From the NCBI GenBank assembly GCA_903861715.1, contig CAIOVI010000037.1, positions 1 to 54,182 of the forward strand: a stretch of 54,182 bases of DNA. The letters are read 5' to 3'. The notes under the pieces are model-generated. The model searched no databases and was not told the origin of the DNA. It worked only from the letters and a program-made list of their open reading frames with translations. Position 1 is the first letter of the stretch. Each line of letters begins with the position of its first letter. This DNA is from an uncultured bacterium (GTDB taxonomy: Bacteria; Patescibacteriota; Minisyncoccia; Moranbacterales; GWC2-37-73). Of this stretch, positions 43,305 through 51,235 are shown one piece after another. The position numbers and the translations under genes were made by a program.

Positions 43305-43340
43305 TGTGTCATAATCCCACGGCCGACGTCAGATGACACT
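43305..43340. repeat. Palindrome family B, copy 1
   Basis: TGTGTCATAATCCCACGGCCGACGTCAGATGACACT. Confidence 0.8.
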
Positions 43341-43406
43341 TTTTTCTTTCTTCTTTTCTCTCCTTATTTCCCCTTGTATTTCAATAATTTGGCAAAATTT
43401 TTTCTT

Positions 43407-44024
43407 TTATGTTTCAGCTTCCACAATTCCCGCCTCCACCAAAGCTGCAAAGTGCTTTGGTTTTTTCTGAAAAAGATATTCCGCTACTTTGCCCCGAATG
43501 TTTTCAGCCTTGAGCTGATTTTTTTTGGCAAAATTTTCAATTTTCTCGGTGGCCTGAAAGGTCTCAGTTTTATTTTCAACCAACAACTCCACTTCAGCAA
43601 CTTGATAACAAAAATCTTGCTCACCTGGCAAGTCAGAAGTTGCCACATCTAAATCAATTGCAAGACCTTCTTTTTGATATTTTCTGCGAGTTGTCTTGAG
43701 TCGGCAAAAAATTTCATAGCCAAAGGCCTTGATGTCAGTTTCAAAATCCAACACTGGCGCCACCGCAAAAATTTCCCTGATTTTTTCAGCGCCCGAAATT
43801 TCTTGAAACTGAGTAGTCTGCAATTTCTCCCCTTGAAGGACGGGCAATTTTAATTGAAATTCTTTATCTCTTTTTCTCAGCCAAATATTATTTTTCGAGA
43901 GCGTAAAATCCTCGGTGTCAAAGTAGGCATCCGTGAAAGTTTTTTCACCGACAAAAATTGCGCCCGCCAACAAGCTTTCTTTTTCTGCTTCATCTAATTT
44001 AAATTTCCTTTCAACCTCAATCAT
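43407..44024 (-). CDS. CYTH domain protein (triphosphate tunnel metalloenzyme)
   Basis: EVERKF, DAYFD, WLRKR, LK, AEVE. Confidence 0.92.
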   Translation of the reverse strand: MIEVERKFKLDEAEKESLLAGAIFVGEKTFTDAYFDTEDFTLSKNNIWLRKRDKEFQLKLPVLQGEKLQTTQFQEISGAEKIREIFAVAPVLDFETDIKAFGYEIFCRLKTTRRKYQKEGLAIDLDVATSDLPGEQDFCYQVAEVELLVENKTETFQATEKIENFAKKNQLKAENIRGKVAEYLFQKKPKHFAALVEAGIVEAET

Positions 44025-44060
44025 AATATTTTTATCCCCCCCCTTTTTTTATTCCCCCAC

Positions 44061-44096
44061 TGTGTCCTGATTCCACGGCCGACGCCAGATGACACA
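44061..44096. repeat. Palindrome family B, copy 2
   Basis: TGTGTCCTGATTCCACGGCCGACGCCAGATGACACA, 31/36 identical to copy 1. Confidence 0.8.
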
Positions 44097-44174
44097 TTAT
44101 TTCTTTTCCTCTTATTCCCCTTATTTCTCTCTAGTTCCCTTCCTCCCCTCATTCCCCTTATTCCCTTTCTTTTT

Positions 44175-45374
44175 TCACCCCATCACTTCGACTTTTTCCA
44201 GCTGCGAGATTTTTTCATTCTCGCAACATTGCTTAGCTAGCCCAAAAGCCACCATCAGCAAAACTGCACTGAGCAAAAACGGCCAATGCAAATTCCTGAC
44301 AAACAAAACCCCACCAACAAGCGGTCCGACAATCATCGAGACTGACAAAATCGAAGACATGATTCCCATCACTTCCCCTCGACGATTGGCTCCGCCAGCC
44401 TTGGCAATAGCGCTCGAAAGCACCACCCGCAAAGTTGATTGAGAAAAGGTAATCAAAATTACACCGAAAATAAAAACAATTGGACTCTTAAAATCCATCA
44501 AGAGAAAGCTTCCCGCCATAACTGGAAAGAACCAAACTTCCAATTGTTTTTCCGTGAAATATTTGAGCCAAATGTTTTTCAGAAAAACAGTTTGGTTGAA
44601 AACCAAAATAATTCCCATGCCAGCAAAAATATAGCCTATCACCCAAGCCGACCAACCGAAAAGTTCTTTCACAAAAAGCGAGAAAATTCCGTTCATGAGA
44701 GCAAAGGCAGTCCCATAAAGAAAAAAAGAAAAATATCTCAAACTCAAAGTTTTATCTTTGGCAGCTCGAAGCAGTGGCAAAAAGGGATTGATTTCAATTT
44801 TCTTTTCAGAAACTGTTCTGTTGTGATGAGTTTCTGGCAAAAAGAACCAAGCGCCAACCATGTTAAGCAGCGCCAAGACTCCCACAAACCAAAAGGGGAA
44901 AGCTGGAGAAATAGCACTAAGCATCGCACCCAAAAATGGCCCGATGATAAATCCAATGCCAAAAACTGCCCCAATGATTCCCAAATTTGATGTTCGTTCT
45001 TTGTCATCCTTGGCAATATCCACCAAATAACTTTGAGCAATCGGAAAATTTCCAGCTGCTGCTCCATCAATGATGCGCCCCAAAAACAAAACCCAGACCG
45101 CATTGGCCCCGGCAAACACAAACCAACCCAAAGCTGTGCTGGCAATGCTCAAAATCAAAACCGGTCTTCTGCCAATGCGATCTGAAAGTGCTCCCAAAAA
45201 TGGCCCGCTCACAAAAGAAAAAAGCGCAAAAACTGAAAAAAGCAACGTCACCACAAAAGAAGAAACCCCAAAACTCTCCACATAAAAAGGCAAAACCGGA
45301 ATAATAATCCCAATTCCCAAGACATCAATAAACACCGTCGCCATTATAATCAACTTATCTTTTTGAATTTTCAT
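44175..45374 (-). CDS. MFS efflux transporter (TetA/DHA1-like)
   Basis: DVLGIGIIIPVLP, GALSDRIGRRPVL, GRIIDG, GFIIGP.LG, LPET. Confidence 0.93.
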   Translation of the reverse strand: MKIQKDKLIIMATVFIDVLGIGIIIPVLPFYVESFGVSSFVVTLLFSVFALFSFVSGPFLGALSDRIGRRPVLILSIASTALGWFVFAGANAVWVLFLGRIIDGAAAGNFPIAQSYLVDIAKDDKERTSNLGIIGAVFGIGFIIGPFLGAMLSAISPAFPFWFVGVLALLNMVGAWFFLPETHHNRTVSEKKIEINPFLPLLRAAKDKTLSLRYFSFFLYGTAFALMNGIFSLFVKELFGWSAWVIGYIFAGMGIILVFNQTVFLKNIWLKYFTEKQLEVWFFPVMAGSFLLMDFKSPIVFIFGVILITFSQSTLRVVLSSAIAKAGGANRRGEVMGIMSSILSVSMIVGPLVGGVLFVRNLHWPFLLSAVLLMVAFGLAKQCCENEKISQLEKVEVMG

Positions 45375-45486
45375 TTATTTTAAATTTTGACTAATTTATT
45401 ACAGAAATCCTATCCAAGCTTAACACACTCCAAAAATCAAACCAAACCCCAGCAAAGAACTACCAAAACAAAAAAACTCTCTCAAC

Positions 45487-45530
45487 AAAGTGTGACAGAA
45501 GTCTGCGGTCGCAGACTTCTGTCACACTTT
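45487..45530. repeat. Palindrome family A, copy P1 (perfect 21-bp arms)
   Basis: AAAGTGTGACAGAAGTCTGCG-GT-CGCAGACTTCTGTCACACTTT. Confidence 0.97.
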
Positions 45531-45571
45531 TATTTTCTAATTAGCAAAACAGTAAAAAGTTTATTAATCAT

Positions 45572-46369
45572 TTAACTCAACGAAATAACAAACAAGTCAA
45601 TTTTCTCACCATAAAATAATTCCGCCAACGCTTGGACATGTGGTGAATTTTCAGTCGTTAAAAATATTTTCTTTCCCCCTTCCTTTAACTTATCTTTAAA
45701 TTCAGGATGCCGATCGAGATACTCTTTTAGTTTTTTTGCGACAATTTCTCCTTGAGAAAATATTTTAATCCCATCTGGAAGATATTTACGAAAAGTTTTT
45801 TCGACTATTGCATAATGCGTGCACCCCAAAATTATAGCATCCATTGAAATACTTTTTTCGAAAAGCTCTTGCGCATATTCCTGAACAACGCTATCAAGTT
45901 GTTCAAAATTTCCAGCCTCAATAATCGGTACCAGCAAAGGACAAGCTTGTTGGAAAACCTTCGCCTGCGGATTAAACTTTGAAATTTCAGCCAAATAAGC
46001 ACACGAGGAAACAGTTGCCTCGGTTGCAAAAATTCCAACATTTCTCGTCCCAATCATTTCTTCCGCAGTCGGAATAATTATTCCCAAAACTTTTTTGCCA
46101 GGATGTTTATCTGGAAGATATTCCTGCTGCAATCTTCTCAATGCCATAGTTGAGGATGTGTTACAGGCTAAAATGATAAGATTAGCTCCTCGCCGAAACA
46201 ACTCCTCAACACCCTGACAGGTATATTGATAAATTTTTTCTTGAGAAAGATTCCCATAAGGAGTTCGAGCATTATCACCCAAATAAATATAGGAATAATT
46301 CGGCAAAGCCTTTTCCACTTCCTTTAAAATAGTCAGGCCTCCAAAGCCAGAATCAAAAAATCCAATCAT
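45572..46369 (-). CDS. murI: Glutamate racemase
   Basis: FDSGFGGLT, GDNARTPYG, ACNT, LGCTHY. Confidence 0.95.
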   Translation of the reverse strand: MIGFFDSGFGGLTILKEVEKALPNYSYIYLGDNARTPYGNLSQEKIYQYTCQGVEELFRRGANLIILACNTSSTMALRRLQQEYLPDKHPGKKVLGIIIPTAEEMIGTRNVGIFATEATVSSCAYLAEISKFNPQAKVFQQACPLLVPIIEAGNFEQLDSVVQEYAQELFEKSISMDAIILGCTHYAIVEKTFRKYLPDGIKIFSQGEIVAKKLKEYLDRHPEFKDKLKEGGKKIFLTTENSPHVQALAELFYGEKIDLFVISLS

Positions 46370-46412
46370 AATAAAATTTATAAATATTTATCCCAAATAA
46401 ACATACCCTCAA

Positions 46413-46456
46413 AAAGTGTGACACATCTCTGCGGTCGCAGACTTCTGTCACACTTT
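46413..46456. repeat. Palindrome family A, copy P2
   Basis: AAAGTGTGACACATCTCTGCG-GT-CGCAGACTTCTGTCACACTTT. Confidence 0.97.
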
Positions 46457-46457
46457 A

Positions 46458-47885
46458 TTATTCCATTATAAGGGCATCCGAACTTTCGGTGTATTTCTTT
46501 ATAAGGGTTGTGATTGTTCCATTTTGTTTCAAAATATTTAGCTCAGTATCCAAGAAATCTTTTAGTCTCTTTTCGCCTAATTTAAAAATGAAAGGATTTT
46601 CGTAAACCCTAATTGGCTTTGCTGGAATTGGCACCAATTCAACCGCTGAATTTTTGTTAAAACTTTCAACAATACAAGGTTCCGTAAATGTAAAATCTGC
46701 TTTATCCTCAGCCACAAATTTTAGAGCTCCCATCACGCTGTCCAATTGCGGAATTCCGACTTGTCGATTGTTTGGAAAGTCAGCTTTCACAATTGAATCC
46801 GTGATGTCATTTTCAATCACGGCCACCCGAATATTTTTATCACCACGAATTTCTTCAATGGTTTTTCCATAGTCAGCGCGAACCCAGGCAAAAGCTGGGC
46901 TTTTATATAGTGACATTGAAAAATCAGCCTTTACCTTTCGCTCTGGCGTCGGCCAAGCAGTGCTGCCAAACATATCAAATCGATTGCTTTCCAAACCTTC
47001 AATAATCACCCCATAACCAACCTCTTCAGTCCAACGAACTTGCCAACTATATTTTTCAGAAATCAAAGAAATAATCTCAAAAAATATTCCCGAGAAAGCA
47101 TTGCGCTCTTCATTATGAATAAAAGCTGGCGGATAATTGATAAAACCAACTCGCAAGATTTTTGTTTTTTCTATCCTATCCAAAACATCCGCAAAACTCT
47201 CATCTTCCTGATCATCCTCCAGCCCCCAGATTGGGTTATATGTTTCATACGGATTTTCAATCAGCAGAAAATCTAGTTGATTCCTAACTATATCGTCGAA
47301 TTTTCCAGAAACATAGCTTTCGTAAACCTCCCAATTTTTATGATAAACATAAACAGCCTTTTGAGTTTTGAGAAATTGCGGCGCGAATTCCAAAAATGCC
47401 AACTCTGAAAGCAGATAGTGAACAGCTATGTCAGTTGATTTTTCCAAATCTTCAATCTTTCGTTCGCCACCTTCTAAAACTTTTCGCGTTGTCAAACTCG
47501 CGACAGCGTGAAATTTTTTATTATTTTTATATAGGTCCAAAACCTGCGCGTATTTCTCCTTATAGTCAGGATTATTTTCAACTTCACCCTCCCAATCAAT
47601 AATTCTCACAATATCATTCAAATAGCCTAACTCCTTTGCTACCTTCAAAACCCTATTTTTCAAAGCATTTCCTTTTGGAATTGCTTTATCTCTGCGCGCT
47701 CGATTTTCTGGATAACCAAAAGCCACATAAGTTGAAATGGCAGGAATGTCAGCCACCAAAATGGCTACTCTGCCAAACCGTTCCACAATGGTCTTCAAAA
47801 GATAACTAATTTCCTCATCTTTAAAATAGCTATTCCCAGGACTCATTCCAATGATATGATAGACTTTTTGGTCAATATTCGACAT
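46458..47885 (-). CDS. tRNA-dependent cyclodipeptide synthase (NYH type) fused to a C-terminal family-3 solute-binding domain
   Basis: N-terminal IIGMSPGNSYF, YVAFGY, HYLLSELAF and VYVYH match AlbC-type CDPS motifs. C-terminal LDRIEKTKILRVG..YPP, G+FFEI, LESNRFD, TPERK..DFS, L.QNGT+..L+KKY match SBP_bac_3. Confidence 0.85.
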   Translation of the reverse strand: MSNIDQKVYHIIGMSPGNSYFKDEEISYLLKTIVERFGRVAILVADIPAISTYVAFGYPENRARRDKAIPKGNALKNRVLKVAKELGYLNDIVRIIDWEGEVENNPDYKEKYAQVLDLYKNNKKFHAVASLTTRKVLEGGERKIEDLEKSTDIAVHYLLSELAFLEFAPQFLKTQKAVYVYHKNWEVYESYVSGKFDDIVRNQLDFLLIENPYETYNPIWGLEDDQEDESFADVLDRIEKTKILRVGFINYPPAFIHNEERNAFSGIFFEIISLISEKYSWQVRWTEEVGYGVIIEGLESNRFDMFGSTAWPTPERKVKADFSMSLYKSPAFAWVRADYGKTIEEIRGDKNIRVAVIENDITDSIVKADFPNNRQVGIPQLDSVMGALKFVAEDKADFTFTEPCIVESFNKNSAVELVPIPAKPIRVYENPFIFKLGEKRLKDFLDTELNILKQNGTITTLIKKYTESSDALIME

Positions 47886-47949
47886 ACGGCTAAATTATAC
47901 AATTTAAGATATTTCCTCTTTTTATCCTACCAGACAAATTTTAATTTTA

Positions 47950-47993
47950 GAAGTGTGACACATCTCTGCGACCGCAGACTTCTGTCACACTTT
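47950..47993. repeat. Palindrome family A, copy P3 (central dinucleotide inverted)
   Basis: GAAGTGTGACACATCTCTGCG-AC-CGCAGACTTCTGTCACACTTT. Confidence 0.97.
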
Positions 47994-48008
47994 TTTTGGA
48001 AAATAATT

Positions 48009-48605
48009 TCATTTATTTCCACCCTTTTTATCAATTTTTGAATAATCAAAAATTTTGTCAACTAAAAGATAATTCACAAATTTATTCATCTTTCTTTTTT
48101 GAATTTCAACGATTATGTCTTCTGTTAAAGAAAACTTACTAATGAAAACACTTTCTTGTAGCTGCTCATATTGCAGAAGATAAAGTTCCCCTCGCAACCA
48201 ATTCCGATCTGCTCTATTTTTTTCCGGAATATCAAAAATTACAAGTCGATATTTTCCATCCCATTTTTTTGCTAAAACTTTTCTGCGCAAACCAATACTT
48301 TCAAACAATTTTATTCCCCTTACACTTAGCGAAAAGATACTGCCTTTCTTTTTCACAATTCCCTGTGCGATCAATCTTTCCAGATTTTTTCTGATTGTAT
48401 TTTTGCTGATTTTCTTATTTTCGAAACCAGTTTCAAATCCAAACAACATTCTTGTTGGTTTTGTGAAGGAATATTTTGGAGAGAAAAATGACTGCGAAGT
48501 CGCCTCGCCTAATTCCCAAAGAGTGGCACAAATATAGTCATTAACCGCTGGTACGCTTTTAAGGATGTGCTTCTGAGCCTGTTTAAGAAAAGTTTTGCTA
48601 GCCAT
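48009..48605 (-). CDS. PaaX-like protein: winged helix plus Cas2-like ferredoxin-fold domain
   Basis: TIRKNLERLIAQGIV...FSLSVRG (wHTH); WDGKYRLVIFDIPE..R..R..LR..L......LQESVF. Confidence 0.88.
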   Translation of the reverse strand: MASKTFLKQAQKHILKSVPAVNDYICATLWELGEATSQSFFSPKYSFTKPTRMLFGFETGFENKKISKNTIRKNLERLIAQGIVKKKGSIFSLSVRGIKLFESIGLRRKVLAKKWDGKYRLVIFDIPEKNRADRNWLRGELYLLQYEQLQESVFISKFSLTEDIIVEIQKRKMNKFVNYLLVDKIFDYSKIDKKGGNK

Positions 48606-48668
48606 ATTTTTAAATTAAAATATTAAGCATGGATTTATTTTAATTTTACCAAATATTTTTTGATTTTA

Positions 48669-48712
48669 AAAGTGTGACAGAAGTCTGCGGTCGCAGACTT
48701 CTGTCACACTTT
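48669..48712. repeat. Palindrome family A, copy P4 (identical to P1)
   Basis: AAAGTGTGACAGAAGTCTGCG-GT-CGCAGACTTCTGTCACACTTT. Confidence 0.97.
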
Positions 48713-48740: not shown

Positions 48741-49250
48741 CTACATCCTTTCGCCAAAATTTCTGTTTGAGTGATAAGCTTGCTCCTCTTCCTCAACTGG
48801 CGTGATGTGATATTTAACAATGGTGAGTTTTGAGCCAACATACAGGTCACTATCGTCGGTTTCCTCAACCATATTGCGAAAGTTTTTTTCGTATTTTCGG
48901 CCTTTTGACTCAACCGTGAAAACGTCGAAATATTCAATTGATTCTTTCATGCCATAGTCGCCTTTCACATTTAAATTGATTTCTTTTTCGCCGCTGCCCA
49001 AATCATCAATCACAATTTTCACTTTTTCGCTGTCAAAAATGGCCGTGACTTTTCCATCACCTTTTCCATCGCTCAAAGAATTTTTCACGAGCTCAACCAA
49101 ATAGTTCCCAATCGCATAAAGTTTGCCAGGAGTCGCTGGCGATTTCGCTTCTTTTGAAATCTCTTTCCACCAAGCTCCAACAATGCTAGCGATGTTTCCT
49201 GCTTGCACTGCTTTGATTTCCAAACTTCTCTCGAAAATTTCTTCGGTCAT
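48741..49250 (-). CDS. Stand-alone GHKL/HATPase_c protein (RsbW/anti-sigma-like)
   Basis: ELVKNS (N box), IVIDDLGSG (G1), GDYGM (G2). Confidence 0.7.
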   Translation of the reverse strand: MTEEIFERSLEIKAVQAGNIASIVGAWWKEISKEAKSPATPGKLYAIGNYLVELVKNSLSDGKGDGKVTAIFDSEKVKIVIDDLGSGEKEINLNVKGDYGMKESIEYFDVFTVESKGRKYEKNFRNMVEETDDSDLYVGSKLTIVKYHITPVEEEEQAYHSNRNFGERM

Positions 49251-51185: not shown

Positions 51186-51235
51186 GGAAGCATGGCCTCC
51201 GCCCAAGGCGGATCCGCCTTGGGCGGAGAGTGGTT
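51186..51235 (+). pseudogene. tRNA-Ser(TGA) 5' fragment interrupted by a 30-bp perfect palindrome
   Basis: GGAAGCATGGCC[TCCGCCCAAGGCGGATCCGCCTTGGGCGGA]GAGTGGTT. Confidence 0.9.

Follow-up and report, generated by a model that had tools for sequence, protein, structure and literature searches.

The array and its genes

Single genes alternate with palindromic DNA sites in part of a 54,182-nucleotide stretch from an uncultured, ultra-small member of the Patescibacteria (contig CAIOVI010000037.1 of assembly GCA_903861715.1, the whole of which is termed the window here). The array is headed by a gene for a small PaaX-like protein, referred to as mini-PaaX, and this protein, the palindromes around its gene and their counterparts in related genomes are the subject of this report. 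To our knowledge, few regulators are recognized in the Patescibacteria (the candidate phyla radiation, CPR), and few mobile-element systems are known in them. The genome that holds the window (G000, of which the window is contig C37) comprises 1.28 Mb in 63 contigs, with a G+C content of 39.7%.

All five genes of the array lie co-oriented on the minus strand, and they are described here in the order in which that strand is read, with gene identities taken from a Pfam scan. The conserved upstream anchor of the variable stretch is unk169 (48741-49250, minus strand), which encodes 169 residues and matches no Pfam family. It is followed by P4 (48669-48712), a perfect palindrome of what is termed family A, which lies 64 nt upstream of the mini-PaaX start codon. 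A promoter-like site found by consensus scan (TTTAAA, 16 nt, TG-TAAAAT; 48643-48670, minus strand) has its -35 hexamer abutting P4. The mini-PaaX gene itself (48009-48605) encodes 198 residues, and P3 (47950-47993), a family A copy with three mismatches in one arm, lies 16 nt 3' of its stop codon. Between P3 and P2 is CDPS-SBP (46458-47885), a lineage-specific gene in which a cyclodipeptide synthase (CDPS) domain is fused to an SBP_bac_3 domain (both by Pfam). P2 (46413-46456), with the same asymmetry as P3, begins 1 nt past the CDPS-SBP stop codon. Then come an Asp/Glu racemase of MurI type (45572-46369; PF01177), the palindrome P1 (45487-45530), which is perfect and identical to P4, and two conserved backbone genes, an MFS transporter (44175-45374; PF07690) and a CYTH-domain protein (43407-44024; PF01928). 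Each of these last two is followed by a site of a second kind, family B (44062-44095 and 43306-43339), after which a convergent ComFC-like gene adjoins the array.

Coordinates and Pfam calls agree with the original prediction, made from the letters of the window, that palindromes divide the region into five co-oriented single-gene units, that P1 equals P4 around a 2-nt center, and that P2 lies 1 nt from a stop codon, namely that of CDPS-SBP. Its count of six long palindromes stands for the four copies of family A; the two family B sites are weak inverted repeats and not long palindromes. It had also seen no integrase, Cas1 or REP-associated tyrosine transposase (RAYT; REP, repetitive extragenic palindromic) in the window. 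This was borne out by whole-genome domain searches, since the genome's lone tyrosine recombinase (PF00589) and lone Y1_Tnp gene sit on contigs C38 and C46, and Cas1 (PF01867) has no match anywhere in the genome.

Two families of sites

The four family A copies in the window are near-identical 44-bp elements with arms of 21-22 nt around the 2-nt center. P2 and P3 have three mismatches each, identical in kind and in the arm affected, and are 85-86% self-complementary. An 18-nt family A half-site matches eight times in the window against 0.05 matches expected, and none of 100 shuffles reached eight; the count is thus not due to chance. The outer parts of the site adjoining the mini-PaaX gene have the geometry GTGTGAC-N24-GTCACAC. 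As RNA, the family A copies fold with -24 to -36 kcal/mol (z-scores of -5.4 to -10.5), with P4 at -36.2 kcal/mol.

Family B, with two matches in the window against 0.00 expected, is built differently: the outer inverted repeat is 7 bp long, the center is CGGCCG and the middle is not complementary. Folding of these sites is no better than that of shuffled sequence (z -0.07 and -2.7). Here and in several variants the outer repeats and the center alone are kept. Five family B sites occur in G000 (the two in the window and others on C19, C30 and C46) and three in the related genome G006, with a middle that is conserved and non-palindromic. No cognate protein was identified for family B, whose sites may have been left behind by a paralog since lost.

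A search of Rfam returned only a sub-threshold chance match to a hairpin, and a plasmid DNA search and searches of phage and plasmid proteins gave no match.

The mini-PaaX protein

Pfam places mini-PaaX in one family alone, PaaX_M (PF20803; 56.1 bits against a cut-off of 24), which is matched by all seven of the paralogs in the genome. No Pfam helix-turn-helix family reaches threshold for mini-PaaX, and the PaaX_C domain has no match in it. Three other models stay below their cut-offs: NCBIfam TIGR02277 (PaaX) at 27.7 bits against 264.55, TIGR01573 (Cas2) at 22.5 against 24.5, with all seven paralogs matching below the cut-off, and PF09827 (Cas2) at 15.6 against 23.8. In an AlphaFold2 model (predicted local distance difference test, pLDDT, 70.5), a winged helix (helix 68-80, strands 84-93) is followed by a β-α-β-β-α-β domain, and a Foldseek search with this model ranked E. 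coli PaaX first (8a39, E 2e-4), Rv0674 (3kfw) next, and the Cas2 chain 5xvn_F lower. The score of a predicted dimer was 0.40 against a mark of 0.42.

A sequence search of the PDB with a profile of the seven paralogs gave no match; a profile of 56 sequences reached E. coli PaaX, with which it aligns across the WDGKW motif. The aspartate at the end of β1 (D125) is invariant in all 56 aligned relatives. It belongs to a set of motifs (FDIPE, R..LR and LQ.SVW), which we take to be a Cas2 signature, that is present in the CPR proteins and absent from E. coli PaaX in the hidden Markov model alignment. The family is large: clustered at 50% identity it has 6,983 representatives at E values up to 0.001 and 5,092 at up to 1e-10, and the best 150 of the 6,983 are 177-259 residues long. 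Its members are labeled only "PaaX-like" or "putative Cas2" in the sources. No paa genes lie beside mini-PaaX, whose neighbors are CDPS-SBP, the racemase, the MFS transporter and unk169.

The site of E. coli PaaX is TGATTC-N27-GAATCA, and the protein represses its own expression at the Px promoter, as stated in a review (PMC9493321). Mini-PaaX shares with it the PaaX_M domain, the combination of a winged helix and a Cas2-like fold, and a layout of two inverted half-sites set far apart (N24 here, N27 in E. coli). It differs in being shorter (198 residues against 316), without the C-terminal ligand domain, and in retaining the Cas2 signature that E. coli PaaX lacks. Its sites also differ: they are full palindromes, flank the gene on either side, are dispersed and vary in number, and proteins of this type have two to seven paralogs per genome. 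Likeness to Cas2 itself extends to the ferredoxin-like domain, the β1 aspartate and the SV(W/F) motifs; the fused winged helix, scores below the curated cut-offs and a genome without Cas1 set mini-PaaX apart.

PaaX_M genes and their own palindromes

Six of the seven PaaX_M genes in G000 are flanked on both sides by a family-specific palindrome, and the family is a different one for each gene. For the seventh, the C40 paralog, bracketing is seen at the ortholog in G005, by a further family that G000 has on C44; a ACATTCTC-type family was rejected as the partner of the C40 paralog in favor of the one flanking this ortholog. The genus set consists of seven genomes (G000-G006, with G007 as outgroup) and holds 28 PaaX_M genes, two to seven per genome. 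Flanking palindromes of their own type were found by scan at 18 of them and by eye at two more, and between genomes orthologs agree in their palindrome and in its offsets and mostly lie in synteny.

The pairing extends well beyond the genus. With the paralog alignment as query, a scan of species-representative genomes gave 435 relatives, from which the best 80 loci, almost all of them in Patescibacteria, were taken. In wide windows, a long palindrome lies upstream of the gene in 38 of the 80, downstream in 42 and on both sides in 25. A strict rule (arms of at least 14 nt, a loop of at most 2 nt, and no more than 150 nt from the gene end) was applied to 73 of the loci, seven having been dropped for a gene within 160 nt of the end of the locus; the immediate neighbors of the PaaX-like genes were excluded from the controls. 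By this rule a palindrome is found at 37 of 73 PaaX-like genes and at 17 of 289 control genes from these loci (Fisher 1e-17), and palindromes at both ends at 16 of 73 against one of 289 (Fisher 3e-11). The original prediction had proposed testing whether each PaaX/Cas2-like gene in CPR bacteria has its cognate palindrome on the flanks, and at all three levels (the genome, the genus and these more distant relatives) the outcome is positive.

The specificity of the pairing is seen in the palindromes themselves. Those upstream and downstream of one gene are alike in 14 of 20 loci; between loci, this is true of three of 190 pairs. The center reads RCG-N2-CGY in 48 of 61 flanking palindromes, many of which are loop-less. 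Protein distance correlates with arm distance (Mantel r = 0.23, reached by none of 2000 permutations, although relatedness of the genomes contributes), and the value is 0.24 once two near-identical orthologs are removed. In a clade with a GCATATGC center, 14 of 16 group-specific residues fall in the N-terminal winged-helix half and the Cas2-like half is conserved, in what is a small sample. Each PaaX_M gene has a cognate palindrome family, and the pairing and its specificity recur across Patescibacteria. Within a literature search that took in few subscription journals, no account of the pairing was found among work on PaaX/Cas2-like proteins and on palindromic repeats of Patescibacteria. A predictable DNA site for each family member would offer dozens of protein-site pairs from which to work out the recognition code of the fold.

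These data bear directly on an explanation that dispenses with the protein, in which the palindromes are bidirectional intrinsic terminators or elements like miniature inverted-repeat transposable elements (MITEs), and PaaX-like genes merely happen to lie in repeat-rich accessory regions. Like bidirectional terminators, family A copies form strong RNA hairpins, have an A-run and a T-run on the flanks of most copies in the genome, and lie just past stop codons, often between convergent genes. Orphan sites without the protein exist, and the genome has other repeat families and a Y1_Tnp gene. The palindromes differ from such terminators in that their stems are 20-21 bp and belong to sequence families tied to one protein gene, and in having variants that do not fold. 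A terminator scan flagged P1 and P4 only, and those on the antisense strand alone; on the coding strand, where T-runs are 3-5 long, none of P1-P4 is called a terminator, and ordinary terminators co-occur beside palindromes. Nor do protein-independent repeats account for gene-specific pairing on two sides, for co-variation of protein and palindrome across phyla, or for the many loop-less palindromes and the non-folding family B. This explanation is accordingly held to be quite improbable.

Dispersed copies and their positions

Family A is not confined to the array. The half-site has 23 matches in the genome, corresponding to about 16 sites on nine contigs, nearly all of them intergenic, and 12 of the roughly 16 copies are single sites outside the array. 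The same arm asymmetry is seen again in many of them. A genome scan found 394 long palindromes in several sequence families, and the cognate families have 3-16 copies each. Counts of family A by a strict pattern vary widely within the genus: 11 in G000, 8 in G001, 6 in G002, 4 each in G003 and G005, and none in G004 and G006. So few copies were the reason for dropping, by reasoning alone, the idea that these are DNA uptake sequences, for which about 16 would be far too few. In a half-site scan of metagenomes, five short contigs confirmed orthologous copies and showed one rearrangement, at the C10 sites.

Comparison of relatives at individual sites shows how copies come and go. In the essential gene atpH (C63:12982-13019; L016:4983-5020), which encodes the ATP synthase delta subunit, 13 codons have given way in frame to a family A palindrome. 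This palindrome is present in G000, G001 and G003, and ordinary codons are found in G002, G004, G005, G006 and the outgroup G007; since the congeners and the outgroup are ordinary and neither length nor frame is changed, the palindrome is derived and has replaced existing sequence. The spot 3' of a TrxR-like gene is occupied by the palindrome in G000, G002 and G005 and by unrelated sequence in G004. In G006, a genome without any standard family A copy, it is occupied (contig C15; L158) by a variant of family A whose outer repeats are altered (ATATGAC) and whose center is CGGCCG. A site on C60 has the palindrome in G000 and G001 but not in G004, next to an ordinary terminator that is conserved; for a site on C7 the flanks are too diverged for comparison. 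Derived copies and swings in copy number support the view that the sites multiply.

Some families follow their protein through the genus. A GTTACA-type family has about eight and nine sites in the two genomes with its protein and 0, 0, 0, 0 and 1 elsewhere, and a CGTCAT-type family has about eight in the sole genome with its protein and 0-2 elsewhere. For a ATATCAAAT-type family the co-occurrence is less clear.

Genes flanked by their own palindromic repeat, with several protein-repeat pairs per genome, are known from REP elements, their doublets (REP doublets forming hairpins, REPINs) and RAYTs. REPs and REPINs are dispersed outside genes and favor gene 3' ends, and orphan repeats outlast loss of the gene. 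The mini-PaaX sites resemble this system in the flanking repeats, the several pairs per genome, the dispersal outside genes with a leaning to gene 3' ends, and the orphan sites. The protein differs, being of the PaaX_M family and not an HUH transposase of the Y1 type; the families have 3-16 copies, not tens to hundreds; the palindromes are longer, often loop-less and centered on CG-N2-CG; and at least one new copy (that in atpH) replaced sequence instead of inserting. The components, a PaaX-type repressor and REP-like repeats, are of known kinds; as far as was seen, it is the combination, the Cas2 signature and the replacement type of spread that are new.

The positions of the sites weigh on a more conventional possibility, that mini-PaaX is an ordinary autoregulated repressor with operators before CDPS-SBP, MurI, MFS and some ten other genes, the sites having spread by ordinary recombination and their use as breakpoints being a side effect of repeat homology. 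The protein belongs to the PaaX family by Pfam and by fold, the site geometry is PaaX-like, and PaaX-like genes have palindromes 2-120 nt ahead of their start codons. Several peptidoglycan-precursor genes are among the neighbors of family A as well. In G000 these are MurA-like and GlmM-like genes (C52:5517-6854 and C60:3290-4693) and the MurI-like gene of the window, and in G002 a Mur ligase (L024:4743-7265); their presence there may be fortuitous or may point to a regulon. For the six cognate families together, 38 sites with two arms divide into 16 between tandem genes, 14 between convergent and two between divergent genes, two within genes and four at contig ends. The convergent share, 14 of 32 intergenic sites, compares with 13.8% expected by length (p = 3.5e-5), which an operator function does not readily explain, and one copy lies within the atpH coding sequence. 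Near-identical 38-bp copies with a shared asymmetry, at 0-11 per genome, would be hard to obtain by point mutation, and CDPS-SBP is not a conserved partner. A regulon of this plain kind therefore seems unlikely.

The original prediction had offered as one of two ideas a regulon with an operator in front of each gene of a cyclodipeptide synthesis and export module. The PaaX-operator geometry and the abutment of P4 on the predicted promoter agree with its regulatory part, and the convergent bias speaks against it. A conserved cyclodipeptide module was not found, CDPS-SBP occurring in one of 401 sampled genomes of the class, and a single synthesis-and-export module was rejected, as relatives keep unk169, MFS and CYTH without the CDPS gene.

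Gene gain and loss at the palindromes

The gene content of close relatives differs exactly at the palindromes, as comparison with G003 and G002 showed; this too was among the tests that the original prediction put forward. In G003 the order is unk169, palindrome, PaaX, palindrome, MurI, palindrome, MFS and CYTH, so that CDPS-SBP is missing, and the junction falls within a single palindrome to which both P3 and P2 can be aligned. In G002 an 840-residue Mur-ligase-like gene lies between palindromes in place of the CDPS-SBP and MurI genes of G000. The variable stretch of G005 has other genes, one palindrome and then CYTH, and G004, G015 and G021 have unk169 and MFS (in some cases also CYTH) with no palindrome. 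CDPS-SBP is taken to be an acquired gene, lying between two palindrome copies, because of its rarity in the class and because its best non-self homolog is 69% identical. The fusion of CDPS and SBP_bac_3 domains is in itself a common CPR architecture, with 244 homologs that have both.

Four DNA runs (X1-X4) contain the stretch, and no RNA run is listed. Logan contigs break inside each palindrome and their depth is even across the cassettes; none has a joint that skips a cassette, but contigs are blind to rare forms and the result is therefore silent on excision or circles. Across 45502-48692 of the window and at contig ends of relatives, assembly contigs and Logan contigs end inside palindromes. 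Repeats of this kind break up CPR assemblies, and additional copies may go unseen because of them.

Content that varies at sites between co-oriented single-gene units recalls integrons, and a winged-helix, Cas2-like nuclease or recombinase might excise and insert single-gene cassettes at the palindromes. The presence or absence of CDPS-SBP with a junction inside one palindrome, the Mur-ligase replacement in G002, the foreignness of CDPS-SBP to the class, and the retention of a Cas2 signature with its invariant aspartate, unlike E. coli PaaX, would all fit. The differences are several: neither IntI nor any other integrase, nor an attI-like site, accompanies the array, the sole tyrosine recombinase being on another contig; the palindromes are nearly identical to each other and away from the array occur mostly alone; and some of the units are conserved housekeeping genes, MFS, CYTH and MurI being backbone genes that are palindrome-free in relatives. 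The sites do not have attC architecture (imperfect, cassette-specific sites with conserved cores), forming one near-identical family with two perfect members; no formal search for the attC core motif was made. Direct repeats of 44 bp suffice for deletion mediated by RecA or slippage, and PaaX_M domains are not known to have any activity. Capture in the manner of an integron is thus very unlikely. The other idea of the original prediction, an integron- or REPtron-like gene-capture array, divides along this line. Its REPtron-like half is favored because the pairing and the boundary-content comparisons came out positive. Its integron-like half finds no support, because no integrase is nearby, 12 of about 16 copies are solitary and the backbone genes are palindrome-free in relatives.

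A proposed mechanism

From the family to which the protein belongs, the geometry of the sites and the co-variation of protein and palindrome, there is a strong inference that mini-PaaX binds family A sites. The family A palindromes are read as its private DNA sites, and the pair as one instance of a large class of such modules in Patescibacteria. In the reading preferred overall, a protein that binds its cognate sites, probably as autorepressor and boundary factor, is combined with sites that spread in a REP-like manner and serve as breakpoints; the case for it and the case against it seem to us evenly balanced. In such a scheme, the winged helices of a dimer would read the two outer GTGTGAC half-sites, 24 bp apart, and the conserved Cas2-like core would sit on the conserved CG-N2-CG center. 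Mini-PaaX would repress itself via the upstream site, because that site abuts the -35 element of its predicted promoter; dimer geometry and autorepression are both inferred. Recognition is likely to be of duplex DNA, to judge from the PaaX-like geometry, the non-folding family B and the many loop-less palindromes. Sites at gene ends would act as boundary elements, either as a roadblock or as a bidirectional terminator; they would multiply to other gene ends as REPs do and could replace existing sequence. Being identical repeats of 44 bp, they would act as breakpoints for gain and loss of single genes, yielding the array in the window. If spreading is real, that mini-PaaX itself copies the sites is a guess that could fall either way.

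Several findings weigh against this combination of a binding protein and spreading sites. At the thresholds used, about half of the 73 relatives have no palindrome, and neither do eight of the 28 genes in the genus; related genomes in the statistics are non-independent samples, and the position statistics rest on crude gene calls (the longest open reading frames of at least 90 codons). Family A tracks its protein poorly: G005, which is 100% complete, has four sites (three of them perfect) and G001 has eight, with no ortholog found in either, the best matches to mini-PaaX there being 27% and 42% identical, respectively (a G001 contig ends at a palindrome). Conservation within the palindromes, 33-44 of 42-46 nt, is in no clear excess of the 68-95% of intergenic flanks. 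The convergent positions of dispersed copies argue against promoter control. At the TrxR-like spot, G003 has an ordinary terminator where G000, G002 and G005 have the palindrome, as protein-independent repeats would allow, and a plain terminator role is therefore possible.

A bolder version of the preferred scheme would make the system a RAYT-independent counterpart of REPIN-RAYT, in which thousands of CPR proteins with a winged helix-turn-helix and a Cas2-like domain maintain and copy private palindromes of about 40 bp. The Cas2-like domain, with its invariant aspartate, would nick or cleave the site, new copies would overwrite sequence through short-patch conversion as in atpH, and the sites would drive cassette turnover. 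This is doubtful, if somewhat less so than the plain regulon. Were it true, portable boundaries and recombination points would drive turnover of single-gene cassettes in tiny CPR genomes. In any case, the protein-site pairs open gene regulation or genome plasticity of uncultured bacteria to experiment, and they may represent a second, HUH-independent form of the "domesticated palindrome" lifestyle.

Other repeats in the same genomes

A repeat of about 105 nt with a nested GGAGG...CCTCC double palindrome (C60:3125-3232; L015) has 54 sites in G000. Copies are present throughout the seven-genome genus set, and comparison with G001 and G004 shows the C60 copy to be an insertion. The element has a MITE-like look, and a PaaX partner was not seen for it.

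The 600 nt downstream of the sole Y1_Tnp gene (RAYT or IS200-like; C46:25332-25694) contain two palindromes, and their 12-nt arms are found about 15 and 12 times in the genome. Gene and palindromes together may amount to a REP-RAYT pair of the conventional kind.

Elsewhere in the window, positions 51197-51228 form a perfect, loop-less, G+C-rich palindrome of 32 bp. It is also found at the ortholog locus L024 (209-240), where it adjoins an open reading frame with a LAGLIDADG domain.

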